In this document: in pieces, positions 3,599 through 59,546 of the stretch | Position numbering within the stretch: position 1 is the stretch's first letter | Layout of the letters: every line of letters begins with the position of its first letter | From: Candidatus Micrarchaeota archaeon | GTDB taxonomy: Archaea > Micrarchaeota > Micrarchaeia > Anstonellales > Anstonellaceae | Direction of reading: 5' to 3' | DNA length: 64,000 nt | Assembly: GCA_021814005.1 (NCBI GenBank) | Contig: JAKAJC010000003.1 | Location: forward strand, 15,934-79,933 | The notes under the pieces: generated by a model | Database searches by the model: none | The model's input: the letters and a program-made list of their open reading frames with translations, nothing else | What the model was told of the DNA's origin: nothing | Position numbers and translations under genes: made by a program

Positions 3599-3630
3599 GT
3601 CATCATCTCAAAATCGCGCAACTGGACTGC

Positions 3631-5064
3631 TCACTCGTTTTCATCTCTGGGCGGCTTCTTGGCCGGCGCTTTGGGGAGGGGCGGAGCTTTCGGGGGCGCG
3701 CCGAACAGCGGCAGAATAGGCCTGTGCGACACCCTCACGTCCTTGTCATCATCGTCATCAGGCCTCGACTGGCCGTAGTGCGGAATTGTCGGCCTGCTCG
3801 GCAGAATCGGCATGGTTGGAGAAGAAATATGCTGGGACGGGGTTGAGAGAGGCGGCCTGCCGAGCGCGGACGGCGGGCGCGTCGGGGGTGTGAGCGGATG
3901 TCCGGCAACCGCGCTCGTTGTCACACCACTCTTGGGCGTTTCTCCAACAAACGCCCTCTTGCTCAGCGAGAATGCCGGTCCGCCTTTGGCTTCTGGCAAA
4001 TGCACAGAAGATGCGGGCGTCTTGTAAGAGGAAACCGACGGCTTTGAATATGAAGATGCTGCCGGTCTGGAGAGGCCCGAGGGAGTGGAGGTGTGTTTTG
4101 AGTAAATCGAAGGCGTTGAAATGCCGTGCTTTGAGGCAAACGGGGAATCCGCCGTCTGGCCGGCAGATGCAGGCGTCTGTTTTGCTTTCGGAGCAGCCGC
4201 GCCCTGCGAACCCAATCCGGCTGCAGCGTGCGGGCCAACTGCCTTTGCATGCGGAACCCCGCCCGCAGCGCCTGTTTCGGCAATTTCTCTGCCTGCGCTG
4301 AATATGCTGCCAGTGCGCGTGCCTCCCGCCCCGAGCTTCGGCTTTGGTTTCACTTCTTTTTCTGGAATTTCGGCATCAACAAGCCGGTATCCGTTTTCAT
4401 CAATTGTTGTGAGATGGATGAGGTGCGCATGGGCCGAGCCGCGCATTTTCACCACTTCGAGAGTTCTCAGCCTTCTGTTTCCCTCCCGCATCCAGCCAAG
4501 ATGAATAAATCCGTCTGTCATTGCCTCGATGCCTACGCTTGTGCGTGGCAAATCCGGGTCGGGCGGCGTGACATCGCTTGCCGTGATAAGTGTAGTCACG
4601 CCCCATTTGCGGATTACATTGACAAGCTTCTGAATCGAGCGCTGCCTCTCGTCCCCGTCGCTCGAGAGCATGGCAAGCGGGGTGATGGAATCGAAAACAA
4701 CTCGCTCCACTCCGAGCGTGTCCACAAGCTCGAGAAGCGAGCCCTCCTGCTCCATGAAGCTGTTCAGCTCGCTTGAGGGGTATTCGATAAACACGACCTG
4801 CTTGTTTCGCTCCAATTCGGGCAGGTTCCAGTCGAACGCGCTCATGTTGGCGAAAATAGAATATTTGGGCTCGTTGAAAGAAAGATAGATGCCCGGCTCG
4901 CCGTTTTCCCGAAAACCGTTCACCAGAAACTGGGTTGCGAATGTTGTGCGGCCCGAGCCAGTGCTGCCCGAGACGGTGATTACGCTGTTTTTGGTGAATC
5001 CCCCGCCAATCATCTTGTCCAGTCCGGGTATTCCTGACGGCACTTTGGGAAAGAGCAGGTTCAT
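3631..5064 (-). CDS. KaiC/RecA-superfamily ATPase (single KaiC-like domain, ArlH/RadB-like) with a long (about 220 aa) Pro/Ser/Ala/Thr-rich low-complexity C-terminal tail ending in an acidic/basic patch.
   Basis: N-terminus GIPGLDKMIGGGFTKNSVITVSGSTGSGRTTFATQFLVNG (Walker A in KaiC/RadA context), then DSITPLAM and HLIHLTTIDENG. The tail carries repeated SYSKP/SSYKTP/IYSKHTSTP units, a DDDDDKD stretch and PPKAPPLPKAPAKKPP. Confidence 0.65.
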   Translation of the reverse strand: MNLLFPKVPSGIPGLDKMIGGGFTKNSVITVSGSTGSGRTTFATQFLVNGFRENGEPGIYLSFNEPKYSIFANMSAFDWNLPELERNKQVVFIEYPSSELNSFMEQEGSLLELVDTLGVERVVFDSITPLAMLSSDGDERQRSIQKLVNVIRKWGVTTLITASDVTPPDPDLPRTSVGIEAMTDGFIHLGWMREGNRRLRTLEVVKMRGSAHAHLIHLTTIDENGYRLVDAEIPEKEVKPKPKLGAGGTRTGSIFSAGREIAETGAAGGVPHAKAVGPHAAAGLGSQGAAAPKAKQTPASAGQTADSPFASKHGISTPSIYSKHTSTPSGLSRPAASSYSKPSVSSYKTPASSVHLPEAKGGPAFSLSKRAFVGETPKSGVTTSAVAGHPLTPPTRPPSALGRPPLSTPSQHISSPTMPILPSRPTIPHYGQSRPDDDDDKDVRVSHRPILPLFGAPPKAPPLPKAPAKKPPRDENE

Positions 5065-5795: not shown

Positions 5796-7226
5796 CTATA
5801 GTTTGGGCGGCTTGTGCGCGAACCACATAATCTTGTATTTCCTCAGGCTGTGCCACACCACTATCGCCATGATGAACAAAAATACCAAATTGATGGCCAG
5901 CCACGTGTAGCCGCCCAACGGGGAGAGGGATTTCTCCACCTTCACCGACACTCCTTCGCCAGTGCCGCCGCGCGAGAGTCTGTCAAGGCTTAATGTCAGA
6001 TTTCTGCCAGACATTTCAACCGAGATGTTGTTGAGCATGGCAGTGATTTTTCCTTCCGGAAACTGCATCGCATAAGTGAACTGCACGTCGGCGCCGATGT
6101 CGCCCTGGGATTTGATGCGGGAGAGGTCATTGAACACAATGCCGCGCAGTCGGCCGGGCCCGAATTCCGCAGTGTTTGCCGCAAACTGGCCTGTGCTGTA
6201 TTTGGAGAGGGCGGTCATCAGCGTGCCGTTGTCCTCAACGCTCTGGTGCATCATCAGCAGGGCCCGCTCGCGGCTCGGCATGCGATAAACAAGCAGGTTG
6301 GACGCGTCTGGGCTTACTCCGGCCGGATATGCAACCTCGACAGCCAGCGTCTGGGCGCTTGCATTGCAGGGCATGCGCAGGCCCGCGGCGCCGATTTCAT
6401 CCAGTGTCCTGTTCACGGCATACGCATCACTGAGGTTCACCTGCCCTGTTTTGTAGGCGTCAGCACCAAATTCCGACTCCTGCTTGAAGCTGCACAATGC
6501 GCGCAGAATGCGCGTGCGCGAGAGGTTGATGCCATAATTCGCGCCCGGCGAGAGACGGAGGGTGAGGCCGCCGTCATTTCGTTCCACCCTGCACCCCAGC
6601 GTCTTGTCTCCGACACAGCCGTTTTGAGGCAGCTCGTCCGCGCGCCGGTCAATGTAGCTGTTGAGAAATGCGCGCAGGTCGCCTTTCTCCGCGGCCGTGC
6701 GGTCAGTATCATTCATCTTGCCGTATGCGAAAAAGCTTGGCAGGGGCGCGCGGCGGATTATGTATCTGCGCGTCTCTTTCAGCTCCAGCCAGTCGCGTGT
6801 TGTGTTGAAAATATAGAATCTGCCGTCAGGCTGCATCTGGCCGCTGATTTCAATGCCGCCATCCGCCTGCGCAGCGCATTTGAAAGGCGCCGCCACGCGG
6901 CCGCAGATGTCGCGGGCATATGTCCCTCCCTCGTAATACTCGGCGAGGCCTGATAGCAGAATTTCGCTGGCCTGCGGTCCCGCATCCTCGCTCAGCCTGC
7001 TTTGGGCAAGATAATCCTGCGTCTGGGCGGAGTTGAGGACCAGCCGCTCGCGCACCACTATGTCGGAATCTCCGCTCTCGTGGAAATCCTGCGAAATGTA
7101 AGTATGGTAAGTGACGCAGCCGGAAGAGAGCAGGAAAATGGCCGTCACGGCTGCAAGCATGATCAATGCTGGTCGCATAGGGGGCGTTTTGGGCTCAATC
7201 ATTTTAAGGCCTCGGCTAAGCAGCAT
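5796..7226 (-). CDS. Surface (lipo)protein paralog 1 of a 4-gene tandem family: N-terminal signal peptide with an LSSGC lipobox-like site, C-terminal conserved motif plus TM helix plus basic tail.
   Basis: N-terminus PALIMLAAVTAIFLLSSGCVTY. C-terminus GEGVSVKVEKSLSPLGGYTWLAINLVFLFIMAIVVWHSLRKYK. Many N-x-S/T sequons. The conserved terminal motifs are shared with the next three genes. Confidence 0.7.
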   Translation of the reverse strand: MLLSRGLKMIEPKTPPMRPALIMLAAVTAIFLLSSGCVTYHTYISQDFHESGDSDIVVRERLVLNSAQTQDYLAQSRLSEDAGPQASEILLSGLAEYYEGGTYARDICGRVAAPFKCAAQADGGIEISGQMQPDGRFYIFNTTRDWLELKETRRYIIRRAPLPSFFAYGKMNDTDRTAAEKGDLRAFLNSYIDRRADELPQNGCVGDKTLGCRVERNDGGLTLRLSPGANYGINLSRTRILRALCSFKQESEFGADAYKTGQVNLSDAYAVNRTLDEIGAAGLRMPCNASAQTLAVEVAYPAGVSPDASNLLVYRMPSRERALLMMHQSVEDNGTLMTALSKYSTGQFAANTAEFGPGRLRGIVFNDLSRIKSQGDIGADVQFTYAMQFPEGKITAMLNNISVEMSGRNLTLSLDRLSRGGTGEGVSVKVEKSLSPLGGYTWLAINLVFLFIMAIVVWHSLRKYKIMWFAHKPPKL

Positions 7227-7258
7227 AAAAAAGGAGAAAAAGGAAAAATATATTCAAA

Positions 7259-8461
7259 TCATTTCTTCGCCGTTTTTCTGGCGGCGGGCTTGCGGGCTGG
7301 CCGCTCTTCCGCTTCGGGCGCTTCGGCTGCCGGCTCCTCCCACTGCGGCGCGGGCGTGTCGTACACTCCCGTTGCCGGCTCATTGTACGCCTGCGCCTGC
7401 CTGCTTTTGCGGCCTCTTGAGAGCACCAGCAAAAGGATTACCAGCACGGCGACCAGCACCACCCATGTCCATGCGCCGATGGGCGAGACGGGCTTGGCTA
7501 TCTTCACCACGATTTTGCCGGGCCCGTATTTGTACATGTCGTCAACGTTCAGCACGAGCTTGCCGTCCGTGAGAGTCACGTTCTTTCCGTTGATTGTGAC
7601 GCTGGACGGCGTCTGCGGGAATTCGGCCGTATAAGTGATTGTGTGCTCAAACGGCGGCAGCGCGTCATCCGGGAAGCTGAAAGAGCTCATGCGGTAGTTG
7701 TTCTCATATGTCGTCCCGCCGGCCACGCCGCGGTTGAAGTCAATGACATTGTCGACCGTCTCGAACTTGAAGCGGTCGTAGAACGCCTTGAATTCGGGCG
7801 GCAGGTTCGAGGTGTCGAACATGCTGTCTGTTGTAATCATGCCGAACGCGAGGCCGATTTTGAGCCTCAGGGCCGGGTCTGCGATGTTTTTGTTCGAATA
7901 GCTCTTGAGGTACGAGAACATGCTCTTCATCATTGTTTTGGCGGTGTCTGTTACCGTCTTGTTCTGGCTGTAATAATAGCTGTTGAGCGGCACCTGGCTG
8001 ATTTCATATGTTTTGACAGACTCGAAATTCATCCAGTCCATCCTGTCTGAGTAGGCGTAGAACTGGCCGGGCGCAAGTTTGGCCTTCATCACCGCGTGCC
8101 CGTCCTCGACTACGCAGCTTTCCACACCAGTTGCCTGGTCGCACTGCCATTGCGCGTAGCCGCCGTCGCGGAAGTAGGAGCCCGTGCCGCTTATCATGAC
8201 ATTGATTATTGTCTGCATCTCGGCCGCGCTGGCGGCGTCATAGTCTGCGCCGGTGAGGGCCTGGTTCGCATAATAGCTCTTAATCGCCTTGGCCATCAGG
8301 TCATCCACCTGGCTTGAGTAGGCGGTGTAATCCCGCAGCGTCAAATCGGAGGAGCCGTCAGCGTAGAATTTCTGCCCGGCCTCCTGCGTGATGGTGATGC
8401 AGCCCGAGAGGGCCAGCAGCATGGCGACGGCCATTGCAAACGCGTAATGCGCGAATTTCAT
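7259..8461 (-). CDS. Surface (lipo)protein paralog 2 (signal peptide, LSGC lipobox, C-terminal PxG-TW motif plus TM plus basic tail).
   Basis: N-terminus MKFAHYAFAMAVAMLLALSGCITITQEAGQKFYADGSSDLTLRD. C-terminus GPGKIVVKIAKPVSPIGAWTWVVLVAVLVILLLVLSRGRKSR. Shares the KTYEI motif with paralogs 3 and 4. Confidence 0.75.
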   Translation of the reverse strand: MKFAHYAFAMAVAMLLALSGCITITQEAGQKFYADGSSDLTLRDYTAYSSQVDDLMAKAIKSYYANQALTGADYDAASAAEMQTIINVMISGTGSYFRDGGYAQWQCDQATGVESCVVEDGHAVMKAKLAPGQFYAYSDRMDWMNFESVKTYEISQVPLNSYYYSQNKTVTDTAKTMMKSMFSYLKSYSNKNIADPALRLKIGLAFGMITTDSMFDTSNLPPEFKAFYDRFKFETVDNVIDFNRGVAGGTTYENNYRMSSFSFPDDALPPFEHTITYTAEFPQTPSSVTINGKNVTLTDGKLVLNVDDMYKYGPGKIVVKIAKPVSPIGAWTWVVLVAVLVILLLVLSRGRKSRQAQAYNEPATGVYDTPAPQWEEPAAEAPEAEERPARKPAARKTAKK

Positions 8462-8486
8462 GGTTCATAACCTCCGTTTATTGCGC

Positions 8487-9944
8487 TTAGCCGCTCTCTC
8501 TTTTGCTGCTGCCCATGGCGGCCTTGAGCACAAACCACGCTGCCACCAGAATAATCAGAAGCAGCGGGATTGCCCATGTCATCGCGCCGAAGGGCGAGAG
8601 TTCCTTTTCGGTCTTTACAACAATGCGGCCCTTGCCAAGCGCGGTCATGTCCGCGAGCGTCAGCTTGAAGCCGTTGCCGTCCATCGGCACGTCCTTGCTT
8701 CCGACCTTGGCGCTCACCACGTGGTCGGGGAAGTTCGCCGCATAGGTGAAGCTCACCTTGAAGTTGACCTGGCTGCCAGTGTCAACCAGCTTGCCCAGCG
8801 TTTCGTTGATGTCTGCAAAATCCATCTGGCTGATTTTGCCGTCGCGGAAATTGACAAGATAATACGACAGGTTCGCTCCGTAGCGGTCAATTGCCGACTC
8901 GAAGCTCGAGTCTGTGCTGACCTGCCTGAACGCGTCAGACACGTTCTGCATTATGCTGGCCTTGGACATGAGGGGCGTGACATCCGCGCTTGTCTTGTTC
9001 ACCGCGTGCCGGTTGCTGTAATTCTCGTCGTACTCGTATGTCTCCTCTTCTGTCACCATAACCAAGCTCTTGGAGCTGGCGGTGCATGGCATGTCAAGCA
9101 CAAGACCTTTGGAATCCGGAGTCTTGCCGACCATGGTCTTGGACTGCACATAGGGGCCGAGCTTGCTGGCGTTTATTTCCTTGAGATAATAGAATCCTTC
9201 CGGCAAATCTCCGGCAACTTCGGTGAGCTCCTCCTCACTCTTGTCGCTGCATCCGGCCCACAATATCTTGGCGTCGGATGAGAGGAACGAACTGCCGCTT
9301 GTGATGTTGAAGCGGGCGTTGCCGCCTGAAGTCGAGAGCACCTCGCAGGTGAATGGGTATGCCGAATAGCAGATGAAGTCGGTGGTGATGAAGTTGTCAA
9401 GCTCTGTCTTTAGCGCCGGTGTGAAGCGGTCGGCAAAGCTCTTGAGGAACTTCTGGCCGAACTCGCGGCCGGATTTGCCCTCGGCCGCGAAATAGAACAC
9501 TGTCGGCACCCTTTCTATCTCATATGTCTTGACCTCTTTCAGCGAGGCCCAGTCGGTGCTTGTGGTGACCGTGTAGAAGTCGCTGCCGCTCTTGAGCTGG
9601 GCTGTCAGATGCACGGCGCTTTCGGAATTGACAGTGCATTTGGCCGAGCTCTTGGCCTGGTCGCAGATGGCGTTGGCATAACTGTTGAACGCGAGGTCTG
9701 TGATGCGCACGCCGAGTTTGGCGTATTTGACCGGTATGCCGCCGCTCAAATACCCGCTGTTTGAGAAGAGCGATTCCATCATGCCGATAATCTCCTTGTT
9801 CACGCTGATTTCGTGGTCTATGACAAGTTCGGACGTGCCGTCGGGCCTAAACGTCTGCACCGTGTCATGGGTGAGATTGACGCAGCCGGACGAGAGAAGC
9901 AGTCCGATTGCGGCGAGCGCAAAGAGCAGAATCGAGTTCTTCAT
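8487..9944 (-). CDS. Surface (lipo)protein paralog 3 (signal peptide, LSSGC lipobox, C-terminal motif plus TM plus basic tail).
   Basis: N-terminus LLFALAAIGLLLSSGCVNLTHDTVQTFRPDGTSELVIDHE. C-terminus GKGRIVVKTEKELSPFGAMTWAIPLLLIILVAAWFVLKAAMGSSKRESG. Collinear with paralog 4 (AICDQAKSSAKCTV, KTYEIERVPTVFYFAAEGKSG, ILWAGCS, MVGKTPDSKGLVLDMPC). Confidence 0.8.
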   Translation of the reverse strand: MKNSILLFALAAIGLLLSSGCVNLTHDTVQTFRPDGTSELVIDHEISVNKEIIGMMESLFSNSGYLSGGIPVKYAKLGVRITDLAFNSYANAICDQAKSSAKCTVNSESAVHLTAQLKSGSDFYTVTTSTDWASLKEVKTYEIERVPTVFYFAAEGKSGREFGQKFLKSFADRFTPALKTELDNFITTDFICYSAYPFTCEVLSTSGGNARFNITSGSSFLSSDAKILWAGCSDKSEEELTEVAGDLPEGFYYLKEINASKLGPYVQSKTMVGKTPDSKGLVLDMPCTASSKSLVMVTEEETYEYDENYSNRHAVNKTSADVTPLMSKASIMQNVSDAFRQVSTDSSFESAIDRYGANLSYYLVNFRDGKISQMDFADINETLGKLVDTGSQVNFKVSFTYAANFPDHVVSAKVGSKDVPMDGNGFKLTLADMTALGKGRIVVKTEKELSPFGAMTWAIPLLLIILVAAWFVLKAAMGSSKRESG

Positions 9945-9954
9945 AGATACACCA

Positions 9955-10030
9955 CCATTTTCGCACGATTAAATAAAATGAAAAAACAAAAATGAAATGA
10001 AAAATAAAAACAAAAAACAATTTAAAAAAA
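9955..10030. terminator. A-rich (T-rich on the coding minus strand) low-complexity spacer between paralogs 4 and 3. Likely an oligo-T terminator for paralog 4 plus an AT-rich promoter/TATA region for paralog 3.
   Basis: Sequence aaataaaatgaaaaaacaaaaatgaaatgaaaaataaaaacaaaaaacaatttaaaaaaataaaaaa stands out as AT-only in a 60% GC context. Confidence 0.4.
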
Positions 10031-10050
10031 TAAAAAACGGCCCGCGCGGC

Positions 10051-11610
10051 TCACATCTGCGGCTGCTGCGGGGGCTGCTGGCCGGCGTATGTCGTCGGAG
10101 GCACGGTGTTGAGGTTTGCCGGCTCTTTGGGTTTGCGCCCGAGGAACCAGACCAAAAGTGCCAGCAATACGACAACTACAATCGCTCCTCCGAAGAGGAC
10201 AACGGGGTCGAGGCCGAATATCTTGCCGTTCGACTCGCTGGCCGGAACCGGCAGCGGTTTCTCGGTCTTTACCACGATTTTTCCCTTGCCCATGCGGACG
10301 AGGTCTGCGAGGGTGACCTTGAAGCCGTTGTTGCTGACTGCAATGGCCGTGCCGCTGCCGCCGACAACGCTTGTTACCGTGCCGGGGAAGCTGGCCGCGT
10401 AAGAGAGCTCGACATCAATGGTAATGTTGGCTGTCTCAAGCTGGCTCTGCGTTTTTGTGATGCTGTCCTGCATCTCCTCAAGCGTGGTGGAGTTGCCGAT
10501 AGTGCCTTTCTCGAGGTCTATGTTGAGCGCGTCAAGCTCTATGGGCCCGATTGGCGTGTCGTTGACCGGAATCTGGCTGATGTTTTCCTCCAGCTTGACC
10601 AGGCCGGCAACCAACTCGGCTTTCATGCTCTCCTTGGAGAGCAGGGCGTAGGTGTAAACAGTCGGCGCTATCGTGATGTTGGCTCTGGCCGCGTAGGAGC
10701 TCACCGGCGTTGCCGCCACAACAAGCGTCTTGGTGTCGTTGGACGGGCAGGAAAGCGACAGTTCAAGGCCTGTAACATCCGGTGTCTTGCCGATTGTCAT
10801 CTTGCGGCTCACAACCGCTGCGGCCTCGGTCTCGTTCATGTCCGAAATGTCGCTGACGTTGCGGGCGCTGCAGCCGGCCCACACGAGTTTGGCCGCAGGC
10901 ATGAGCCCGCCGCCCGAGCCGATGAGGCGCACATTGATGTTATTGCCGCTGTTCGACACGACATCGCAGCCGTACGGGCTTATGCCCAAGCAGTAGTAAT
11001 TGGTGGTGATTATCGAGTCAATGTCGCCGGGCAGCGTATTCTTGTAATAGCTTGTGAAGCTCTTTACAACTCCGCTCATAAACTCGGTGCTTGTCTTGCC
11101 CTGCGCTGTGAAATATGTTACTGTAGGGATTTTCCTTATCTCATAAGTGCGGATTTGTTTGGGGGCGGACGCGTTGGTGGTGTCGTTCACCACTGTCATG
11201 GTGTAGAATCCGTTTCCGGCACTGAGGCTGCCGACCACATGAATCTTGTTGTCAGGCCCGACCGTGCATGTGGCGCCCTTCATGTCAGCGCAAATCGCCT
11301 TGGCATATGCCTCGCTGGTGCGCTGAATCAGGCGCTCTATCAGCATGTAGTTTGTTTCCGTAATTGTCGGGAGCATGACATTGACCAGGCTCTTTATCTG
11401 GGTGATGTCGTTCTGCGGAAGCGCGAACTGGTGGTCTATGACGATTTCAGACGTGCCGTCCTCCTTGAAGGTCTGGGTGGATGTGTGCATGATGGTGCAT
11501 CCGGACAAAAAGAGCAGACCTGCAAGAAGAATTACCAAAAGAGCCGAAACTTTCATATCTAACACCACCGCTCCTCCACGAGAGAAGAAGCCACTCGAAT
11601 ATGCTTTCAA
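10051..11610 (-). CDS. Surface (lipo)protein paralog 4 (signal peptide, LSGC lipobox, C-terminal motif plus TM plus basic/Pro-Gln tail).
   Basis: N-terminus MKVSALLVILLAGLLFLSGCTIMHTSTQTFKEDGTSEIVIDHQ. C-terminus GKGKIVVKTEKPLPVPASESNGKIFGLDPVVLFGGAIVVVVLLALLVWFLGRKPKEP. Collinear with paralog 3. An ORF on the + strand here is rejected. Confidence 0.8.
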   Translation of the reverse strand: MKAYSSGFFSRGGAVVLDMKVSALLVILLAGLLFLSGCTIMHTSTQTFKEDGTSEIVIDHQFALPQNDITQIKSLVNVMLPTITETNYMLIERLIQRTSEAYAKAICADMKGATCTVGPDNKIHVVGSLSAGNGFYTMTVVNDTTNASAPKQIRTYEIRKIPTVTYFTAQGKTSTEFMSGVVKSFTSYYKNTLPGDIDSIITTNYYCLGISPYGCDVVSNSGNNINVRLIGSGGGLMPAAKLVWAGCSARNVSDISDMNETEAAAVVSRKMTIGKTPDVTGLELSLSCPSNDTKTLVVAATPVSSYAARANITIAPTVYTYALLSKESMKAELVAGLVKLEENISQIPVNDTPIGPIELDALNIDLEKGTIGNSTTLEEMQDSITKTQSQLETANITIDVELSYAASFPGTVTSVVGGSGTAIAVSNNGFKVTLADLVRMGKGKIVVKTEKPLPVPASESNGKIFGLDPVVLFGGAIVVVVLLALLVWFLGRKPKEPANLNTVPPTTYAGQQPPQQPQM

Positions 11611-38396: not shown

Positions 38397-39107
38397 TTAT
38401 ACCTGTGCCGCCATGTCTTCAAGAAGTTTTTTCGGGTCCCGCGCTTTCACATAAGCCGAAGCCAGAAGCACGCCGTCCACGCCAAGCGCGAACGCCTTTT
38501 TCACATCTGCAGCCGTGCTAACTCCAGCACCGCAGATAATACCCACATCGGGCGCGCTCTTTCGAATAAGTTTGACTGTGTCCGTGACAATCTCCGGTTT
38601 GGCTGTCGAAACGCTTATGCCGCTTCCAATAAGTTCGGGCGGCTCCACCGCAACAAAGGTGGGCTTCATTCGCGCCAGCGCGGCCGATTCGGCAGCATCC
38701 TGCGCGCACACCATGCTCTCAAGCTTGTTTGCGCCAAGCTGCGCAATTGTTGTCTCGATGTCGTTGGGCGAAATGCGGTGCTCGGAATGATTGACCAGAC
38801 TGCCCTTCACTCCCGCTTCTGCCAACTGCGCCGGAGTGGTCCAGCCCGTGCGCGCTCCCGCCTCGAACGGCGAAACTTCCTGCGCAAACACTTCGCCTCC
38901 AATCCTAACCGCCTCTCTAAGCAGCGTAGCATCGGGGCAGACAACAATTCTCACTCCTGACACCATGGACACCATGGCGGCGGTTTCGCACAATTTGAGG
39001 CCCTTCTCTCCAGAAGATTCAGAATAAGCCTTGAGATTGAGGGCAATCAGGGGTTTGAATTTGGATGACATAACACAAAGTCTGCCTCTAATATTAAAAA
39101 CTCCCAC
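38397..39107 (-). CDS. tpiA: Triosephosphate isomerase, archaeal type.
   Basis: KPLIALNLKAYSES, VNHSEHRI (catalytic His/Glu region), AVEPPELIGSG, GAGVSTAADV. 236 aa. Confidence 0.8.
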   Translation of the reverse strand: MGVFNIRGRLCVMSSKFKPLIALNLKAYSESSGEKGLKLCETAAMVSMVSGVRIVVCPDATLLREAVRIGGEVFAQEVSPFEAGARTGWTTPAQLAEAGVKGSLVNHSEHRISPNDIETTIAQLGANKLESMVCAQDAAESAALARMKPTFVAVEPPELIGSGISVSTAKPEIVTDTVKLIRKSAPDVGIICGAGVSTAADVKKAFALGVDGVLLASAYVKARDPKKLLEDMAAQV

Positions 39108-39121
39108 ATACTGATATTATT

Positions 39122-40339
39122 ATGTTCGTCCTCCAATTAACACAATCAATCAAACCCGCCAAACTCACCAAAGACGACCTCAAGTCCATCCCCCGCACCC
39201 AAAAAGGCGTCTATTCCGATTTCGAACACCGGCTTTTATCGACATATTCGCCCTACCGCTACAGCGGCGTGCCAGTCGATGCCGCCAACCGCTACGCCCT
39301 CATCGAGGCCAACCAGCTGCTGTTTGACCTTCTTGTCAAAATAGATTATTCTGCAGCAGCCCGTGTCAATGAAAAGCATCCTGCAATCAGCGACTATGAC
39401 CGGGTGCTGGAAAACGAGAACAACGGCCTTGTGGCCGAGAAGATGAAACTTCTGGGCCCGCTTCTTTCCCAACTGGGCCTGCCCCCCAATGTTCCAAACT
39501 CCGATTCGCTTGACATCATCTGGAAGCTGAAACGCACGGGCTCTCTCGCGCTCAAAAGCGTTATCCGTCTTCTCGGCCTTGATTCCATCCCCGACATTTT
39601 CCGTGCTCCTGATTCCAAAAAAATAAAGACCGACGCTTATTCGGTGGAAGCCCTGCACAATGCCAGCTACATGCTGACCACCCATTTCAAGCACTATTAC
39701 GAAGACTGCAAACTGTTTCTGGTCGGCTCGTTCGCCCATAATCATCAGCAGCAAATCCTGCCGTCCGCCATCGACTTCCGCGTTCTGATTCCAATCTTGC
39801 CGCGTGAAAATTACATAACCCACATGGAGTTCGCGCACGGGCTTCTGGACTCCCCGATTTCCATCTACTACGACGGACGCAAGACTTCGGTTCCAATTAC
39901 CTTCATGCTGGTCGAGCGCGACTATTTCAAATCATTCGCCCTGTCCGACCCGGCCAACCTCTTTGCCCCCGGCAACTCGCTTTTGATGAGCTGGGGCTGC
40001 GCTCTTCCCGAACTGCCCACAGGTGTGCGCGACGAGCTCAAACTTGCCGGCATGTTCAGCAGCGTGGTGTCGCTGCGCGAATCTCTGACTGACGTTCGAG
40101 CCTATCAAAATCCGGCCCGCCTCAAAGCCAAGCGCAACGCGCCCTATTACGCACACCTCTCGCTTGGGCACATCTTCGGCCCCGTCGATTCTCTTGGCGG
40201 CATCAAAAAATTCAATGCCCAGCATTTTGATTTGCCGGGCGTGATGGGGGCGCTGATTGAGGCCAACTTGCAGATGCAGGACGTTCTGCTGGCCTATAGT
40301 GAACCTCTTGAAAAGAATATCGCCGGTGGCAGGATTTGA
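39122..40339 (+). CDS. Hypothetical protein, possibly a divergent nucleotidyltransferase-fold protein (GSFAHN...IDFRV). 3' end overlaps tRNA-Ser by about 19 nt.
   Basis: ORF track. LFLVGSFAHNHQQQILPSAIDFRVLI loosely resembles the pol-beta-type NTase G-S-x(9-13)-D-h-D motif. No other match. Confidence 0.45.
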   Translation: MFVLQLTQSIKPAKLTKDDLKSIPRTQKGVYSDFEHRLLSTYSPYRYSGVPVDAANRYALIEANQLLFDLLVKIDYSAAARVNEKHPAISDYDRVLENENNGLVAEKMKLLGPLLSQLGLPPNVPNSDSLDIIWKLKRTGSLALKSVIRLLGLDSIPDIFRAPDSKKIKTDAYSVEALHNASYMLTTHFKHYYEDCKLFLVGSFAHNHQQQILPSAIDFRVLIPILPRENYITHMEFAHGLLDSPISIYYDGRKTSVPITFMLVERDYFKSFALSDPANLFAPGNSLLMSWGCALPELPTGVRDELKLAGMFSSVVSLRESLTDVRAYQNPARLKAKRNAPYYAHLSLGHIFGPVDSLGGIKKFNAQHFDLPGVMGALIEANLQMQDVLLAYSEPLEKNIAGGRI

Positions 40340-40477
40340 ACCTACAATCCCGTAAGGGACCAGTTATCTCGATTCGGAAAAGCGCAAACGCGAAGGTTGG
40401 CGGTTTTCCGAGGTTTTTCGCCCGTGAGGCGAAAAAGCTCTTCGAGACTGGCGCACTACCGAGTTATGCGACACCGG
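40321..40477 (-). tRNA. tRNA-Ser (anticodon CGA) containing an intron of about 70 nt at the canonical 37/38 position. Type II tRNA with a long variable arm.
   Basis: Reverse complement reads GCCGGTG...CCAGT-CTCGAA[intron]A-ACTGG-TCCCTTACGGGAT-GTAGGTTCAAATCCTGC-CACCGGC-G. It has an acceptor stem, T-arm GTTCAAATC, a long variable stem-loop, and discriminator G as in tRNA-Ser. Confidence 0.6.
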
Positions 40478-40480
40478 CTT

Positions 40481-40552
40481 TAGCCCCCGACGAGGATTGA
40501 ACTCGTGACCTCCTGTTTACGAGACAGGCGCTCTACCGCTGAGCTACAGGGG
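40481..40552 (-). tRNA. tRNA-Thr (anticodon CGU).
   Basis: Reverse complement GCCCCTG-TA-GCTC-AGCGGTA-GAGC-G-CCTGT-CTCGTAA-ACAGG-AGGTC-ACGAG-TTCAATC-CTCGT-CGGGGGC-T folds into a canonical cloverleaf with U33 and anticodon CGT. Confidence 0.8.
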
Positions 40553-40781
40553 CACGAAAAACGCAGAGGGGGAACACTCGAATTATCGCTGTCCCCCTCT
40601 TCATTTTCCACGTTCCTTTCTGATTCTCCCCCTGTATGTGAGGGCGAGTGGATTTATCTCCTCCGACGAAGATTAAAAAGGTTGGGATTTGTTTTTTCTT
40701 TACGGCTTGTGTCGAATGTCAATCTGACATATTTTTAAGCACTTTGAATAATTAAGCAGTCAGCAACATCGGTGATTCATA

Positions 40782-41063
40782 ATGTACGTTCTGCGCATGT
40801 ATGGAGCCCAGCCCTATGGCGAAAGCGGGAAGATGTATCCCTCCTGCTTCTACACCTCGTTCAAATCTTCGGGCAACGACGCCGCCATTCTGAACATGGC
40901 TATTGGAAAATCGATGCAAATCCGCGATATGGGCGCGAGCGCAATCTCCAAGGCCGGCGAAAAGGCGCAAATGAAAAAAGAAAATGCCGAGCCTGCAAAA
41001 ATATTTTTCCTCAAGCCTCTGCAGGAAGAGAAGCAGACAAACTCAATCAGAAAGGTCGCCTAA
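40782..41063 (+). CDS. Small hypothetical protein (93 aa) downstream of the tRNA pair.
   Basis: ORF track. AT-rich TATA-like promoter (acatatttttaagc / aataattaag) 20-60 nt upstream. C-terminus overlaps the next gene's 3' end. Confidence 0.35.
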   Translation: MYVLRMYGAQPYGESGKMYPSCFYTSFKSSGNDAAILNMAIGKSMQIRDMGASAISKAGEKAQMKKENAEPAKIFFLKPLQEEKQTNSIRKVA

Positions 41064-42314
41064 GTCTATTTCTCCGCCGCTCAAATTCCACAGCCGCTGT
41101 GTCCATACCGATTCCGGCACTATGAAGTCACTGCCGCGCGCATGACGATGAATTTCGTTCATGGTGGACACAACCCCGTTCCACTGTTTTTTGTGCGCAT
41201 GCGGCGAACCGCGTCCAAGCGAAACATCAAAATCGAGATGGTCGATCTCCATCTCGAGCTTCTCGTTGCCTGCAAACACGGGCTCCATGCGCCTCGCGTC
41301 GCGAAGCAGCCGGACGGCGGTGTTGTCAACCTTGCGCTTGTCGAGTGAATTGAAAACGCTGTTGAGGTAGCTGGCCTGAATCAGTATCGGCTCATAATTT
41401 GCATAATCCCAGTCCTCCCCCATAATATATGCGTTGAGAAAGAGGCGGAAAGAGCCTGTCGGCGCCTGCAGCGCGATGGCCTGAACACAAACCCGCAAAT
41501 GCTCGCTCCTGTCAAATACTTCGGAACTGGCGCCCTCAATGTCCATCGAACTCGGGGGCGCGACAAAGCTCTCGTTGTATGCGGGGTGGCCGTGGAAATC
41601 GAAAAAGCCAACATGCCTGTATGTCATATTCGGCGTGTAAACAAAGGTCGGGCCGGCCAGCCCCTCGCTGGCAAGCTTGTGGATAAGAAATTTGGCGTTC
41701 TCGGTGCTGCATTCTGTGCCTGACTTCCATCTCACGCGCCCGCCCCACGACAGCTGCGCCGGCACGCCGCTTCCGTTCACGAACTTCTGTTCAATCATTT
41801 CGAGAACATGCGCAAAATACTCGAGCTTCTTCTCGCCTTTGTACAGCCTGATGTCCTGAACCTTGTCAATGAAATCCCACCTGTCTTCGTTGAATGTGGC
41901 ATATGCGTCCGCCTTGAACAGAACCGGACTGGGCGTCGGAATGTCCCCCCGCTCGAACACCATGTAATACGTGCGGTGGTTGCCATCGGTCTCGAACGTC
42001 ATGCTGTTGGTATGCGCATAAATCGGAAATTCGCATCCCTCGCGCGTCATCAATTTTGTGACATGCTGCAGTTCCATCTCAACGCACGGGTTGATGGCCA
42101 CGAAGATGTCAACATCCCGCGTTTCAAGGCCGAAAGTGTCGCGCACCTGTTTGCAATACTTCACGTCCCGTTTTATGTGAAAAACGCGGCTCTCATCGCA
42201 GGCGCCCATCTTCTCGAGATTGGCTTTGACACGCATGCGTGTTTCTGGCGAGAAGCGGCCGGCCGGAATTTTTTTGTAAGCAAGGCTGGCCTCCGGTTTT
42301 TTGTGAACTGTCAT
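41043..42314 (-). CDS. Hypothetical protein (423 aa), no recognizable family.
   Basis: ORF track. Globular composition, no TM. No motif could be assigned by eye. Confidence 0.55.
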   Translation of the reverse strand: MTVHKKPEASLAYKKIPAGRFSPETRMRVKANLEKMGACDESRVFHIKRDVKYCKQVRDTFGLETRDVDIFVAINPCVEMELQHVTKLMTREGCEFPIYAHTNSMTFETDGNHRTYYMVFERGDIPTPSPVLFKADAYATFNEDRWDFIDKVQDIRLYKGEKKLEYFAHVLEMIEQKFVNGSGVPAQLSWGGRVRWKSGTECSTENAKFLIHKLASEGLAGPTFVYTPNMTYRHVGFFDFHGHPAYNESFVAPPSSMDIEGASSEVFDRSEHLRVCVQAIALQAPTGSFRLFLNAYIMGEDWDYANYEPILIQASYLNSVFNSLDKRKVDNTAVRLLRDARRMEPVFAGNEKLEMEIDHLDFDVSLGRGSPHAHKKQWNGVVSTMNEIHRHARGSDFIVPESVWTQRLWNLSGGEIDLGDLSD

Positions 42315-42419
42315 ATGTTATTGTTTATGCGCATTAGCGGTTAAAAGCCTTTTCAAAGAGCGGGGCCTTTGCACTGGCAACAAGCGAACTCATTTAAGTC
42401 TTGATAATCTCTTCAATTC

Positions 42420-43064
42420 GTGGTTTTTATGAACGCAAAACTTCTGATGCTGCCGGTTCTGATGGCTGCCGTCCTTCTTCTGGCCGGCTGCACTTCATCG
42501 CCGCTCGGCCCGTCCTGCCCGTCATCGTGCGACGACAATAATACCTGCACTCAGGATTATTGCAATGCCTCAACAAACGGCACGTGCGCGCACACGTCTT
42601 TCGACGGCTTCAGCTGCAACAATGCTTCAGGCATTTGCAAGGCCGGCGTTTGCGTGAACAAGGTTGTTGTTACAAGCACAGGCAGTTCCGACAACCGGTA
42701 CGAATTCCGCAAGTCGGATTCAGATTCCTACTGGAGAAGCGCGCGGCCATGGCAGGTGTTGGAGCATGCCCAGCCGGCAAACGGCGACCTGACGCTTGTT
42801 ATTCTGAACGTCGACTCCGCGCAGCTCAAACTGACCAATCTCTCGGTCGAAGGCAACGGCTTTGCAGGCTCATATACCACGCCCGCCTATCTCTCAAGTG
42901 GCGACTCAAAGGCCATCACTGTCCACTGGAACACAAAAGGCGTCTGCAATGCCGGCGACACTTACGAATATCATCTCGAGTTCAGCTATGACTCGACCGG
43001 TGCTTCTCCAATCATTAACCAGAAGCAGTACGGCGCCAAAAACATCGTCGGCAAGTGCAGCTGA
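42420..43064 (+). CDS. Secreted Cys-rich lipoprotein (signal peptide plus LLAGC lipobox), heavily sequon-decorated.
   Basis: MNAKLLMLPVLMAAVLLLAGCTSS, then a Cys-rich module (CPSSCDDNNTCTQDYCNASTNGTCAHTSFDGFSCNNASGICKAGVC) and a C-terminal beta-rich domain. Confidence 0.65.
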   Translation: MVFMNAKLLMLPVLMAAVLLLAGCTSSPLGPSCPSSCDDNNTCTQDYCNASTNGTCAHTSFDGFSCNNASGICKAGVCVNKVVVTSTGSSDNRYEFRKSDSDSYWRSARPWQVLEHAQPANGDLTLVILNVDSAQLKLTNLSVEGNGFAGSYTTPAYLSSGDSKAITVHWNTKGVCNAGDTYEYHLEFSYDSTGASPIINQKQYGAKNIVGKCS

Positions 43065-43087: not shown

Positions 43088-44284
43088 TTATTTTTTCTTC
43101 TTTGATTTCTTTGCCGCCTTCTTTTTGGCTGGCTTTGCTTTCTTGGCCGGCTTTTTGGCTGCTTTCTTTTTGGCCGGAGCCTTTGCTTTCTTTGCTGCCG
43201 GCTTGGGCCCTTTCCTTGCCGTTTTTTTCGAGGGCTTTTCTTTCTCAGCCATTTTCCCCTCGCCCTTTGCCTCTTTGTTGTTCACCAGATTAACCGGTTT
43301 GCCGCGCAAATACGCCTCAATATTGTCCAAACTGGTATCCAAAATCCTTTTCAGCGCCTCCTGGCTGTTGAATGCGTTGTGCGGCGTGATAATGACGTTG
43401 GGCTTGTTGAACAAAATCTGGTTTGCCACAACAGTGCGCAAATCAAAAGCTCCGGAAAATTCTGGAGAAACAAGCTGTCTTTCCTCCTTGATTGCCTTTT
43501 CCTCTTCAAGCACGTCCAAAGCCGCGCCGCCGACATGGCCGGACAAAACGGCGTCAACAAGCGCCTTGTTGTCCACCAGCCCTCCGCGCGCCGTGTTCAC
43601 AATCAGCACGCCCTTCTTCATCTTGGCAATGCTTTCGGCGTTGATAACATATTTTGTCTGCGGGGTGAGCGGGGTGTGCAGACTGATTATGTCGGAGTGG
43701 GCCAGCAATTCATCAAGGCCGACCAGCTTGCAGTTGAGAAGCTCCACGAGGTTGGGGTCTGCGTAGGGGTCATAGATGCGCACGTGCATGCCCAGCGCCT
43801 TGGCCGTCTTGGCGACGTGCGAGCCGATTTTGCCGAAGCCGATGAGGCCCAGCGTGCGGTCATACAAATCAATGGTGCGAAGCCCCTCTATAGAGAAATT
43901 GCCCTGCTTTGTGCGCTCGGCCGAAAGCACGATTTTTTTTGCCAGCGCCAGCATGAGGGCGACCGTGTGCTCGGCAACTGTTTGTGAGCCGTAGGCGGGC
44001 ACATTGCTGACCAGAATGTTGCGCGAATTGCAGGCGGCCATGTCGATGTGGTCGAAGCCTGTCGAGAAAGTGGAAATCATTTTGAGGTGCTGCATCTGGC
44101 CCAGCTGCTTGGGGCCGAGCTTTGAATAGATGAAAATGCCCAGCACCTCGGCGCGCGCCGCCTCGGCGATGTTTTTGTCATCCAGAACTCCGTTGATGAA
44201 CACGACGTCATGGCCCAAAAGGCGGTTTCTGATATGGGCTTTTTCCCAACCCTCCAACTCGAAAAACGCGATGACGGCCATCAA
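43088..44284 (-). CDS. D-isomer-specific 2-hydroxyacid dehydrogenase (PGDH/LDH-D family) fused to a roughly 65-aa Lys/Ala/Pro-rich histone-H1-like C-terminal tail.
   Basis: NAD-binding GLIGFGKIGSHVAKTAKALGMHVRIYDP, catalytic region ARGGLVD...HVGGAALDV, then KPSKKTARKGPKPAAKKAKAPAKKKAAKKPAKKAKPAKKKAAKKSKKKK. Confidence 0.75.
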   Translation of the reverse strand: MMAVIAFFELEGWEKAHIRNRLLGHDVVFINGVLDDKNIAEAARAEVLGIFIYSKLGPKQLGQMQHLKMISTFSTGFDHIDMAACNSRNILVSNVPAYGSQTVAEHTVALMLALAKKIVLSAERTKQGNFSIEGLRTIDLYDRTLGLIGFGKIGSHVAKTAKALGMHVRIYDPYADPNLVELLNCKLVGLDELLAHSDIISLHTPLTPQTKYVINAESIAKMKKGVLIVNTARGGLVDNKALVDAVLSGHVGGAALDVLEEEKAIKEERQLVSPEFSGAFDLRTVVANQILFNKPNVIITPHNAFNSQEALKRILDTSLDNIEAYLRGKPVNLVNNKEAKGEGKMAEKEKPSKKTARKGPKPAAKKAKAPAKKKAAKKPAKKAKPAKKKAAKKSKKKK

Positions 44285-44387
44285 GCCACCTCGTTTTTGG
44301 CTCGAAGGCAGGTATTTTAAGGGCTTGGCGGAAGGGGCCGGAGGCCTTAAATAGGCAAAAATAGTGGTAAAAAAAATAATTAAGCGG

Positions 44388-44423
44388 CAAAATCAGATTT
44401 TTTGCGTCAAAATCAGATTTTTT
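44388..44423. repeat. 16-bp perfect direct repeat caaaatcagatttttt x2 separated by 4 nt. It overlaps the 3' end of the histidine-phosphatase gene and lies upstream of the dehydrogenase gene.
   Basis: Read directly: caaaatcagattttttgcgtcaaaatcagatttttt. Confidence 0.5.
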
Positions 44424-57356: not shown

Positions 57357-59546
57357 TTACTTCTTTCCGCGCTTCTTCGCCTTCTTTCCCTCGTCGCGCT
57401 GCGCCCTCTTGTACCCGTCCTCTATTTCGCGGATAAGCACCCTCTTTCTCGGCCCGTCGGACAGGGCATGGCGCAGCACATCCACGATGTTGCCGACAGG
57501 CGTAATCTTGATTTTGTCGCGCTCGCCCTTGGGCAGGTAGATGTCCTCAACATTCTTGCGGGGCATCAGCACCTCTTTCACGCCAGACTCGATTGCAGCC
57601 TCTGTCTTGGCGGTTGCGCCGCCGATGGGCAGCACGTCGCCGCGCACAGACAGCGAGCCTGTCATGGCCAAATCCTGGCGTATAGGGATGTTTTCCATGG
57701 CCGAGAGCACGGCCAGCGCAATAGAAATGGAGGCCGAATCTCCCTCAACTCCCTCATATGTTTGAAGGAACTGCACGTGAATATCAAACGAACTCACGTC
57801 GCGGCCCATGTGTTTTTTGATAATCGCCGAAACGTTTTCCACCGCTTCGCGGGCAATCGAGCCGAGCTTGCCTGTTGCAATAATCTTGCCCTCGTTCTTG
57901 CTGGCTGCGGGCGTAACCTCGGCAACAATAGGCATCACAAGGCCTGAACTGCCGTCGCCCAGCACTGCAAGTCCGTTCACCTTGCCTACATTCAATCCCG
58001 AAGTCGAAAACACTTCGTAATCTTTTTTGTATTCTATGTAGTGCGAGCTCATCTGCTGCTCCATTGTGCGCGCAATAACGCGTCCGCGGCGCACGTGGTC
58101 TGCATCAACAAGCGCCGCGCCCTCTTCGCGCGCCAAATCTCCGGCGGCGCGCACAAGGCCTCCCAGCTCGCGCAAATTCAGCGTGAGGCGCTTCTTGCGC
58201 CCCGATTTCTTGCGCGCATCATTGATTATTTCCACGACCGCGTCGTGGTTGAAGTGCGGGATTTTGCCGTCTTTGACAACCTCCTGCGCCACGAACTGCA
58301 CGAGTTTGTCCTCGTTCTCGGTCGTGTCCGGCATGGAGTCCTCCATATACACTTCGTAGCCCGCGCCGCGGATGCGGCTGCGCAAAGCCGGATGGACTCC
58401 TTTGACATCAATCATGTTGCCAGCGGCCACAAGCACGAAATCGCATGGAACAGCCTCGGTTTTCACCATGGCGCCGGACGACAGCTCGGACTGGCCTGTA
58501 ATTGCGTATTTCTTTTCCTGCATTGCGGTGAGAAGCTCCTGCTGCCATCTGTATTTCAGCGAGGCCATCTCGTCGATAAACAGCACGCCCTTGTTGGCGC
58601 GGTGAATGGCGCCGGCCTCAACCCGCAAATGCGCAGGCGTGCCCAATCCGCCCGACTGCAGCGGGTCGTGTTTGACATCGCCCAAAAGCGCGCCCGCCTT
58701 GTTGCCGGTCGCATCGATAAAGGGCGCGTTGTGGCGGCCCGAATTGTCGATAATGAGTTTCGGCACAACATTGTCTGTGTTCATCATGCCCATGCGCGCG
58801 CCCACATTGTTGGTGAAGCGCCACAAGAGAAAGAGTATGCCCACGCCCAAAAGCGTTGCCAGCACAAACCATTTGTTTTCGCTGCTCAGCTGCCCTGTTG
58901 CGTAGAGAAATACGATAACAATCATGAGGCCGAGCAGGAAAAGCACTCCGCCCGACGGCCCGCGTGTTCCGGGGAGCGTCGGCCTCCCGCGCATGCCCTG
59001 CACAAGCAGCCGGCCTGCGCCCACTGCGTTGGGGCCCTTGTCTTTTTCATCGGCAGCAAACTGGCCGGTCGCTTCATTGGGTTCAAATCCTGCGGCCTGA
59101 TTTTGCGCGCTCATCATGTCATATGGGTTTGCCGCCGGCTTTGTTGAATGGACGGCGCCCTTTGCGTGCGCTGCGTGTGTTCTTTCTTTTTCCATCATTT
59201 TTCTGGCCGCATGCAGCGCCTCAAGGCGGGGAAGAAGCGGCGCGAGAATGGAATTCTTTTTTGCCTCGGTAATTGTCGGGTAAGTCGGAACCACGATGAC
59301 CTGCGGGTGGCTCTCCTCGTTGGGATTGGGGCGCACCAAAACATCTTCGAGCGCGGCCGCCGGCATCAGCTCGGCCATGGCCTGTGCCAGCATGGATTTT
59401 CCCGTGCCGGGCGTGCCGACCATGAGCACGTGGCGGCGCTGTTTTGCCGCCTTCTTGATAATGCGCACGGCGTTGTCCTGCCCGATGACCTGGTCTACGA
59501 GAGATTTGGGCACCGGTATCTCGGCTGTGGATTTGAAAGAGCGCAT
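57357..59546 (-). CDS. lonB: Archaeal membrane-bound Lon protease (LonB).
   Basis: AAA+ Walker [13 protein letters not shown]. Two TM helices inserted in the ATPase domain ([29 protein letters not shown]). C-terminal protease domain with the Ser-Lys dyad ([19 protein letters not shown]). Confidence 0.9.

Follow-up and report, generated by a model that had tools for sequence, protein, structure and literature searches.

The window analysed here is a stretch of 64,000 nucleotides from a Candidatus Micrarchaeota archaeon (contig JAKAJC010000003.1). The locus in question lies between two housekeeping genes on the minus strand that act as backbone anchors: triosephosphate isomerase (TIM; 38397-39071; Pfam TIM, 7.5e-37) and a D-2-hydroxyacid dehydrogenase with a Lys/Ala-rich C-terminal tail (43088-44284; Pfam 2-Hacid_dh_C, 3.3e-56). 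Divergent from TIM is the gene for p405, a 405-aa protein with a divergent pol-beta nucleotidyltransferase (NTase) fold (39122-40339, plus strand). It is followed by two tRNA genes and by p93, a small protein gene of 93 aa that is found in three genomes only (40782-41063, plus strand). Further along are p423, an ORFan of 423 aa with three known sequences that are 57-61% identical (41043-42314, minus strand), and a Cys-rich predicted lipoprotein of 214 aa with an LLAGC lipobox (42420-43064, plus strand). The sequence-only reading had listed the 93-aa and 423-aa frames and a Cys-rich, sequon-laden lipoprotein as genes without recognizable function. All of them are indeed present, and none, nor p405, has a Pfam or NCBIfam match above threshold.

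The two tRNA genes are tRNA-Thr(CGU) (40482-40553) and tRNA-Ser(CGA) (40321-40478). ARAGORN detected tRNA-Thr(cgt) alone, which Rfam also finds (70.2 bits) and which is intron-less here; tRNA-Ser was found by Rfam (39.4 bits). The Rfam alignment of 40321-40478 places an insertion of ~78 nt in the anticodon loop of this second tRNA, which is identified as tRNA-Ser(CGA) because direct reading of the sequence shows a long variable arm and CU-CGA-A as the anticodon loop. A 75-nt intron (40366-40440) at the canonical 37/38 position separates the exons 40441-40478 and 40321-40365, and the gene encodes no CCA. Both tRNAs, including the intron of the serine gene, are as previously read, and they are adjacent; they are not back to back, however, but in tandem on the minus strand, with Thr upstream of Ser and a spacer of 3 nt. 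Presumably, the pair forms one tandem transcription unit, and the 75-nt intron would be removed at the canonical anticodon-loop junction.

The tRNA-Ser intron resembles the archaeal bulge-helix-bulge (BHB) introns in lying between positions 37 and 38, with its borders read from the sequence, and in the pairing of the anticodon with the intron 3' end (CUCGA/UCGAG). It folds into a CCAG/CUGG helix, a 3-nt bulge and a UCUCGA/UCGAGA helix, with a 5' bulge that is non-canonical in the minimum-free-energy fold, and the computed precursor is a cloverleaf with an extended anticodon/intron helix (z = -5.7). It differs from BHB introns in its length of 75 nt and in a two-hairpin design, the base sequence of which, GCUUUUUC...GAAAAACCYYGGAAAA, is kept all the way from the window to L043. 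The intron is shared by the orthologues in L007, L010, L011 and L043. The two-hairpin design recurs in the tRNA-Thr introns of relatives; in both L007 and L008, the tRNA-Thr orthologue has an intron ~76-78 nt long. Just upstream of tRNA-Thr, the repeat scan also revealed a GC-rich hairpin that has arms of 16 nt and leads into a T-rich run of the plus strand (40558-40607); its L007 counterpart lies directly after the p405 homologue. Several assemblies are interrupted within the tRNA pair, a hint of strain-level variation.

On its other side, tRNA-Ser is met by the converging p405 frame, and the reported overlap of 19 nt was confirmed (40321-40339). The final six codons of p405 lie in the flank and the 3' end of tRNA-Ser. 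This had been interpreted as att-site reconstruction, but a local loss of the stop codon explains it instead, as the relatives of p405 end 3 aa earlier with a stop codon of their own, and in L007 the homologue ends in the order stop codon, 20 nt, tRNA-flank repeat. A deletion of ~27 nt would have taken the native stop codon and the spacer and so caused the overlap, and translation would now continue as far as a TGA in the T-arm sequence of the tRNA.

Three parts make up the p405 protein: a stretch of ~170 aa at the N-terminus that is helical, the NTase core (about aa 175-280, nt 39644-39961) and a helical domain at the C-terminus. It is part of an unnamed family with 39 remote homologues (about 39 cluster representatives). 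Its AF2 model has a mean pLDDT of 55, while the core reaches 70-84 with a helix-strand-strand-helix-strand topology. This alpha/beta core is detectable by both sequence and structure comparison, the match being weak but consistent. The family profile, when compared with the PDB, aligns with ANT(4')-IIb (4ebj; E = 5e-4) across the GS...DxD segment ('GS...sDIDf.V'). With the p405 model, Foldseek returned AAD(9), AadA and KNTase as the best matches, and 11 of the first 12 were of the ANT/AadA/KNTase kind, at a probability of at most 0.85, E about 0.06 and TM about 0.3. Pfam matches to Polbeta, NTP_transf_2 and DUF6932, all below the gathering threshold, occur at a shared position in 5-6 of 27 family members. 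The nearest known systems are ANT(4')-IIb (4ebj), KNTase (1kny), AadA (5g4a) and AAD(9) (6xz0). Like these enzymes, p405 has a helix, a strand ending in GS and then a strand with the acidic motif, followed by an all-helical C-terminal domain. Unlike them, it has an extra conserved N-terminal helical region of ~170 aa, has no resistance-gene context and comes from an archaeal (DPANN) host. All statistics in this comparison are marginal and no Pfam model reaches threshold; on these sequence and model comparisons, p405 does belong to the pol-beta nucleotidyltransferase superfamily and appears closest to the ANT/KNTase type.

The NTase signature proposed earlier, GS...x13...DFR, was correct in its first half only. 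G202-S203, at the end of the first core strand (hG[GS]), is the conserved GS, in a column conserved to at least 90% among 27 family members, though lost in P0002. The acidic motif is not DFR; the family's [DE]-x-D aligns with A216-I217-D218, in which D218 is kept and the first catalytic Asp has become A216. The metal-binding carboxylate pair [DE]h[DE]h, placed 9-13 residues after GS, is hence absent from p405 (A216-I-D218). GS...[DE]xD is kept in 20 of the 22 remote homologues, while the first acidic position is A, G or S in all five TIM-linked members, so that this clade has A/G/S-x-D where the ANT/KNTase enzymes have D-x-[DE]. The conserved S275-D276 ('LSD') is a candidate for the third carboxylate, which in this superfamily sits on a neighbouring strand, the model being too poor to place the residue. 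Since the first metal-binding Asp is gone in the TIM-linked clade, the most likely role of p405 is that of a nucleotide- or RNA-binding protein whose catalysis is impaired, and not that of an active transferase. There is a slim chance that this pseudo-NTase clade arose from an active enzyme family by recruitment as an RNA-binding factor. p405 would be a divergent protein within an unnamed archaeal branch of the superfamily, in which an ANT/KNTase-like core is probably joined to a helical C-domain and an extra N-terminal helical region.

Of the remaining genes, p423 always adjoins the lipoprotein and p93 genes and is absent from L007. Its dN/dS of 0.34 indicates purifying selection, and its AF2 model is unusable (pLDDT 37.6). 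The lipoprotein has several N-x-S/T sequons, a weak Pfam match to Dicty_CTDC, 61-65% identity in L007 and L008 and a dN/dS of 0.22-0.26. Both p423 and p93 are taken to be real proteins, and the protein of 214 aa to be a predicted surface lipoprotein. The N-terminal 46 aa of p93 are almost invariant, and its Lys-rich C-terminal half is variable with in-frame indels.

Usable DNA is limited to four relatives. L043 is a distant Micrarchaeota genome, the TIM of which is 53% identical to that of the window. On the same strands, it has the dehydrogenase, adjoining tRNA-Thr(cgt), then ~5 kb, tRNA-Ser with its intron, ~2.7 kb, TIM and CDC48; the genes between the anchors are wholly different. The p405 homologues (31-60% identical) all lie divergently beside TIM, in every relative having p405. 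In L012, where TIM is 78% identical, a homologue of 31-33% identity occupies the same place, and p405 should for this reason predate the clade. The order of p423, p93 and the lipoprotein gene is unchanged in L008. Gene order is thus conserved among the relatives, but p423 is missing in L007, and L010 and L011 lack p405 at this place, with only 36 nt separating their tRNA-Ser from TIM. The TIM tree resolves too poorly to count losses.

Archaeal integrative elements that target tRNA genes include the SSV-type and pNOB8-type integrase elements, and the sequence-only reading had seen the genes of the window as the cargo of one. The tRNA-Ser 3' end is indeed an insertion site, in the relative L007. 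Here, a 1.2-kb cassette with an NYN gene lies between direct repeats of 41-42 nt that hold the tRNA-Ser 3' end, and this end with its flank (core AAAAGAAGAATTTCGCCGGTGG) is repeated three times around the cassette. This cassette and its flanking repeats mark the tRNA-Ser 3' end as a hotspot of insertion within the clade. In L007, the inserted cassette is placed between the p405 homologue and the tRNA, which puts the homologue on the chromosomal side of the att site. In the window, the site is empty. The window shares with such elements only the position of unknown-function genes directly beside a tRNA 3' end. The predicted direct repeat of the tRNA-Ser 3' segment is absent: neither tRNA 3' end has a second copy within the 64 kb when up to 3 mismatches are allowed over 29-30 nt, a 15-mer match at 59080 is coding sequence and not tRNA, and the repeat scan of 38.3-44.4 kb gave no att-like repeat. 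No integrase was found among the called genes from ~34 to 50 kb, nor in the Pfam matches for the called genes of L001 and L002, and no integrase fragment accompanies the locus. PHROGs gave no match for p405, p93, p423 or the lipoprotein, and no viral, defence or phage matches were obtained. The expected deviation in composition also failed to appear, as GC, GC3 and codon usage stay within 1.1 SD of the window mean (|z| below 1.1). The dS values of p405 (0.88) and p423 (0.79) compare with 0.93-1.33 in neighbouring genes. No patchiness was seen among strains of the species, and the flanking genes are syntenic with the housekeeping anchors. A mobile islet is, therefore, not supported here. An older version of the idea, in which the slot of p405 and/or that of p93, p423 and the lipoprotein are decayed integrations at the tRNAs with eroded att repeats and integrase, is unlikely. 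The absences of p405 in L010 and L011 and of p423 in L007, the nested att-like repeats at the same tRNA-Ser 3' end in L007 and the different gene content of L043 are in its favour; nevertheless, repeat, integrase and compositional signal are all lacking in the window and dS is that of the neighbours, the L012 homologue keeps its place, remote p405 family members elsewhere sit among housekeeping genes, and the L007 insertion is on the tRNA side of p409. With the same absences as a caveat, p405 or p423 may formally still have been gained by insertion.

It had also been suggested that p405 belongs to a nucleotide-signalling defence module or a minimal nucleotidyltransferase (MNT) toxin-antitoxin pair. 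With CD-NTases/CBASS and MNT-HEPN systems, p405 shares the superfamily fold alone; this fold and the fast evolution of p405 (dN/dS 0.33) are what speak for a CBASS-like signalling enzyme or a HEPN antitoxin, which is extremely improbable. PADLOC gave no match for p405 or for two remote homologues with intact DxD. No match to CD-NTase models with an adjacent effector was found, the neighbours being TIM and tRNA-Ser, and Pfam detects no HEPN domain in the genes neighbouring p405. MNTs are roughly 100-150 aa and encoded next to a HEPN gene, a size that p405 far exceeds. Moreover, the catalytic motif is degenerate (the first Asp missing, and GS too in P0002), the closest structures are ANT/KNTase and not cGAS/DncV, and the place beside a housekeeping gene is stable. 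A different question arises at p93, where a block of ~300 nt on the plus strand (40627-40925) is 80-97% identical across three genomes. Within it are TATA-like boxes, a Shine-Dalgarno sequence (GGTGAT) and the opening 48 codons of p93; it can be described as a leader or promoter region plus the start of the gene. That this region is mainly a non-coding RNA or cis-regulatory element, and not (or not only) a protein gene, seems improbable, even though 155 nt upstream are as conserved as the 48 codons while neighbouring genes have a dS of about 1, the dS of p93 is 0.36-0.41, and the third codon positions of its conserved residues show 86% invariance, compared with 61% for the 2-hydroxyacid dehydrogenase gene (Fisher p = 8e-4). 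The frame, on the other hand, is open in all three genomes with its stop at the same place, indels of 21 and 15 nt preserve the frame, the ATG has a TATA-like box and GGTGAT in front of it, and the variable sites show an enrichment at third positions (7 of 13). The block has no Rfam match at E <= 10, and its fold z-scores of +0.86 and -0.84 show no unusual stability on either strand. There is a slim chance that it is an undescribed dual-function Micrarchaeota element with frozen synonymous sites, acting as a cis-regulatory RNA or as an RNA that overlaps the small protein gene, and tied to the divergent tRNA-Thr/tRNA-Ser unit.

The region is probably native Micrarchaeota chromosome with fast-evolving, lineage-specific and vertically inherited genes, and neither a mobile element nor a defence module. 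The vertical inheritance is indicated by the native GC, GC3 and codon usage and by a dS like that of the neighbouring genes. An old backbone, all on one strand, would consist of CDC48, TIM, tRNA-Ser(CGA), tRNA-Thr(CGU) and the 2-hydroxyacid dehydrogenase, and the gaps in it would be filled by such genes. Thus, a false lead, that of a mobile island or defence locus, is removed. An unnamed archaeal protein family receives its first fold assignment, as a pol-beta NTase of ANT/KNTase-like type, and within it a clade-specific loss of a catalytic residue is shown. The tRNA-Ser(CGA) 3' end is documented as a hotspot in this Micrarchaeota group, of which the window represents the empty site. These results do not overturn the current understanding; their use lies in the annotation of DPANN genomes.

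The locus is flanked by genes for CDC48, a small membrane protein, triosephosphate isomerase (TIM), a 2-hydroxyacid dehydrogenase, two histidine phosphatases and EF-2. In the distant Micrarchaeota genome L043, whose TIM is 53% identical, the dehydrogenase, tRNA-Thr(cgt), intron-bearing tRNA-Ser, TIM and CDC48 follow one another in the order and on the strands seen in the window, while the gaps between these anchor genes hold entirely different genes. The two tRNAs thus belong, with the housekeeping genes next to them, to an old backbone whose gaps turn over. Such turnover is also seen inside the clade. In the loci L010 and L011, tRNA-Ser lies 36 nt from TIM, the 405-aa protein p405 is absent and other genes are found past the tRNA; similarly, the 423-aa protein p423 is absent from L007 (GCA_964364595.1), a relative that carries homologues of other window genes.

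The sequence-only reading had looked to presence and absence among relatives as a check on a mobile islet. Every p405 homologue (60, 52, 47 and 31-33% identical) adjoins TIM divergently. The exact p405 protein and the 93-aa p93 occur on 14-15 contigs of independent assemblies, with identical gene order throughout, and in the relative L008, p423 (61% identical) has the lipoprotein gene on one side and p93 on the other, just as in the window. Because a divergent copy occupies the same site in the locus L012, p405 is older than the clade. Its absence from other relatives is explained more simply by loss; the resolution of a TIM neighbour-joining tree was too poor to choose between loss and gain. 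L007 also has, at 7206-10094 between its dehydrogenase and histidine phosphatase genes, an extra 522-aa gene and an AAA_14/DUF4143 ATPase gene, both of which are missing at window positions 44285-44412. The dehydrogenase itself (43088-44284, minus strand) ends in a Lys/Ala-rich tail of ~60 aa (43088-43270; KKAKAPAKKKAAKK...), whose coding sequence is made of short, imperfect repeats; relatives conserve this tail poorly.

Both tRNAs noted from the sequence are present; they are, however, arranged in tandem on the minus strand, with tRNA-Thr first and a 3-nt spacer, and not divergently. ARAGORN called only tRNA-Thr(cgt) (40482-40553, minus strand; 70.2 bits with Rfam) and missed the second gene (40321-40478, minus strand; 39.4 bits with Rfam, the anticodon loop being interrupted). 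The latter was identified by direct reading as tRNA-Ser(CGA) because of its anticodon CGA and long variable arm. Its exons lie at 40441-40478 and 40321-40365, separated by a 75-nt intron (40366-40440) at position 37/38. Folding of the precursor gives a cloverleaf that includes a helix between anticodon and intron (z = -5.7).

The tRNA-Ser intron is designed as two hairpins with the base sequence GCUUUUUC...GAAAAACCYYGGAAAA; this sequence is kept out to a genome whose TIM is only 53% identical, and the stems show compensatory changes. Examples of this design are found at 40366-40440 in the window, L007 4335-4408, L010 4181-4339, L011 9806-9965, L043 7071-7228 and L013 1-167; in L007, the first hairpin is duplicated in tandem. 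The design is also seen in tRNA-Thr introns. The tRNA-Thr(CGU) gene is intron-less in the window and carries an intron of ~76-78 nt in L007 (4450-4599) and L008 (4305-4451), so that this intron is a presence/absence polymorphism among close relatives. Searching the literature for tRNA introns in Micrarchaeota yielded nothing relevant to the tRNA-Ser/tRNA-Thr locus.

Just upstream of tRNA-Thr, a GC-rich hairpin (40558-40607) is present in the window and in L008. Its L007 counterpart (3021-3069) is directly preceded by the first att-like repeat and the p405 homologue's stop, and this differing position implies rearrangement. At least eight contigs of independent assemblies, from at least six samples (L002-L006, L051-L053), start or stop within the tRNA pair, at about 40365-40580 of the window, and two contigs of one sample share an overlap of about one k-mer there. 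The source samples include ERZ27237587 and SRR13240876. The breaks suggest that the pair holds a repeat or varies structurally between strains.

The four proteins around the tRNAs are present as noted, and none of them has a significant Pfam or NCBIfam match, in keeping with their description as genes without recognizable function. For p405 (39122-40339, plus strand), a word-indexed search found four sequences only, and 39 cluster representatives (330-380 aa) came up when the search was exhaustive and profile-based. Residues G202, S203 and D218 are at least 90% conserved in a 27-sequence alignment. The family profile matched the aminoglycoside nucleotidyltransferase 4ebj (E = 5e-4), a 'nucleotidyltransferase domain' chain, KNTase and AF0614, and the Polbeta, NTP_transf_2 and DUF6932 matches of remote members were co-located but below threshold. 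The AF2 model, made before the deeper 27-sequence alignment, is poor (mean pLDDT 55) with a core at residues 170-280 (pLDDT 70-84); its best Foldseek matches were AAD(9), AadA and KNTase, with probability up to 0.85 and E about 0.06. With moderate confidence, p405 is predicted to have an ANT/KNTase-like nucleotidyltransferase fold, extended at the N-terminus by a helical region.

The nucleotidyltransferase guess therefore holds at the level of the fold, but its motif register was wrong and activity is improbable. A [DE]-x-D motif is present in 20 of the 22 remote members, where the window protein has A216-I-D218; the first acidic residue is absent in all five TIM-linked members, and the homologue P0002 has also lost the GS motif. 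One homologue with an intact DxD is P0009. We infer that catalysis is impaired in the TIM-linked clade. The neighbours of remote family members are housekeeping genes (DUF359 and NAD synthase; DUF1385; an FMN-dependent dehydrogenase). The suggestion of a defence module found no support in the window, as PADLOC, PHROGs, viral contigs and viral structures returned nothing for p405.

Only three p423 sequences (41043-42314, minus strand, in the window) are known, even with profile search. Profile searches found no relatives in PDB or Pfam, profile-profile comparison showed no relationship to the p405 family, and the AF2 model is unusable (mean pLDDT 37.6). Its many invariant motifs and a dN/dS of 0.34 (about 0.33 for p405 and p423) mark p423 as a real protein. 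The 214-aa Cys-rich lipobox protein (42420-43064, plus strand) is 61-65% identical in relatives.

The p93 ORF (40782-41063, plus strand) has a TATA-like box and GGTGAT ahead of its ATG. Its frame is open in three genomes with a common stop and in-frame indels, and it appears to be a real gene. A block at 40627-40925, made up of 155 nt upstream and the first 48 codons, is 80-97% identical among the three genomes. There, p93 has a dS of 0.36-0.41 and the neighbouring genes about 1, and third positions at conserved residues are invariant in 86% of cases vs 61% in the dehydrogenase gene (p = 8e-4). An Rfam scan of the 93-aa region (E <= 10) gave only noise, folding of both strands showed no exceptional stability, and two metagenome scans (exact 24-mer; back-translated peptides) found no more copies. 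The block is abnormally conserved, with frozen synonymous sites, which neither an Rfam family nor fold stability explains.

It had been suggested that the locus is an integrated element. The end of p405, whose last 19 nt lie within the convergent tRNA-Ser gene as described, had been taken for att-site reconstruction. Its relatives are three residues shorter at the C-terminus and have stops of their own, and in L007 this stop is followed by ~20 nt and then the tRNA-Ser flank sequence. The window lacks ~27 nt at this place; because of this, translation runs on over flank and acceptor/T-arm sequence (NIAGGRI) until it meets a TGA. A local deletion made the overlap, and att-site reconstruction was rejected. 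Further, the expected direct repeat was not found, as neither the tRNA-Thr nor the tRNA-Ser 3' part has a second copy in the 64-kb window. The sole match of the att search, a T-arm-like 15-mer (CGCAGGATTTGAACC, 59080-59094), lies inside coding sequence with no tRNA signal and was rejected as a chance match. The genes called from ~34 to 50 kb encode no integrase domain, and scans of viral contigs with p405, p423 and the tRNA-Ser att core gave no match. The proposed composition check also spoke against foreign origin: p405, p423 and the lipoprotein gene depart from the mean of 54 window ORFs by no more than 1.1 SD in GC, GC3 and codon usage. Measured against the nearest relatives, p405 has a dS of 0.88 and p423 one of 0.79, where TIM and the lipoprotein gene give 0.93-1.33; thus, p405 and p423 diverged along with the chromosome. 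With no att repeat in the 64 kb, no integrase among the genes called from ~34 to 50 kb, native composition, neighbour-like dS and synteny, an integrated element in the window finds no support.

An apparent insertion is seen in L007. There, a 41-nt sequence, whose exact core AAAAGAAGAATTTCGCCGGTGG is the flank and last bases of tRNA-Ser, occurs three times (2980-3020, 4124-4164 and 4223-4263, the last being part of the intact tRNA), and a 42-nt repeat starting with the tRNA 3' end occurs twice. These repeats flank an NYN-domain gene in a cassette of ~1.2 kb (2980-4263), positioned between the p405 homologue and tRNA-Ser. The arrangement looks like serial, nested, att-like site-specific insertion into the 3' end of tRNA-Ser; no integrase remains. 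Because the p405 homologue and the tRNA lie on either side of the insertion, p405 is on the chromosomal side of the insertion site, and the window shows this site unoccupied. As a whole, the locus is a normal piece of DPANN chromosome that is specific to its lineage.
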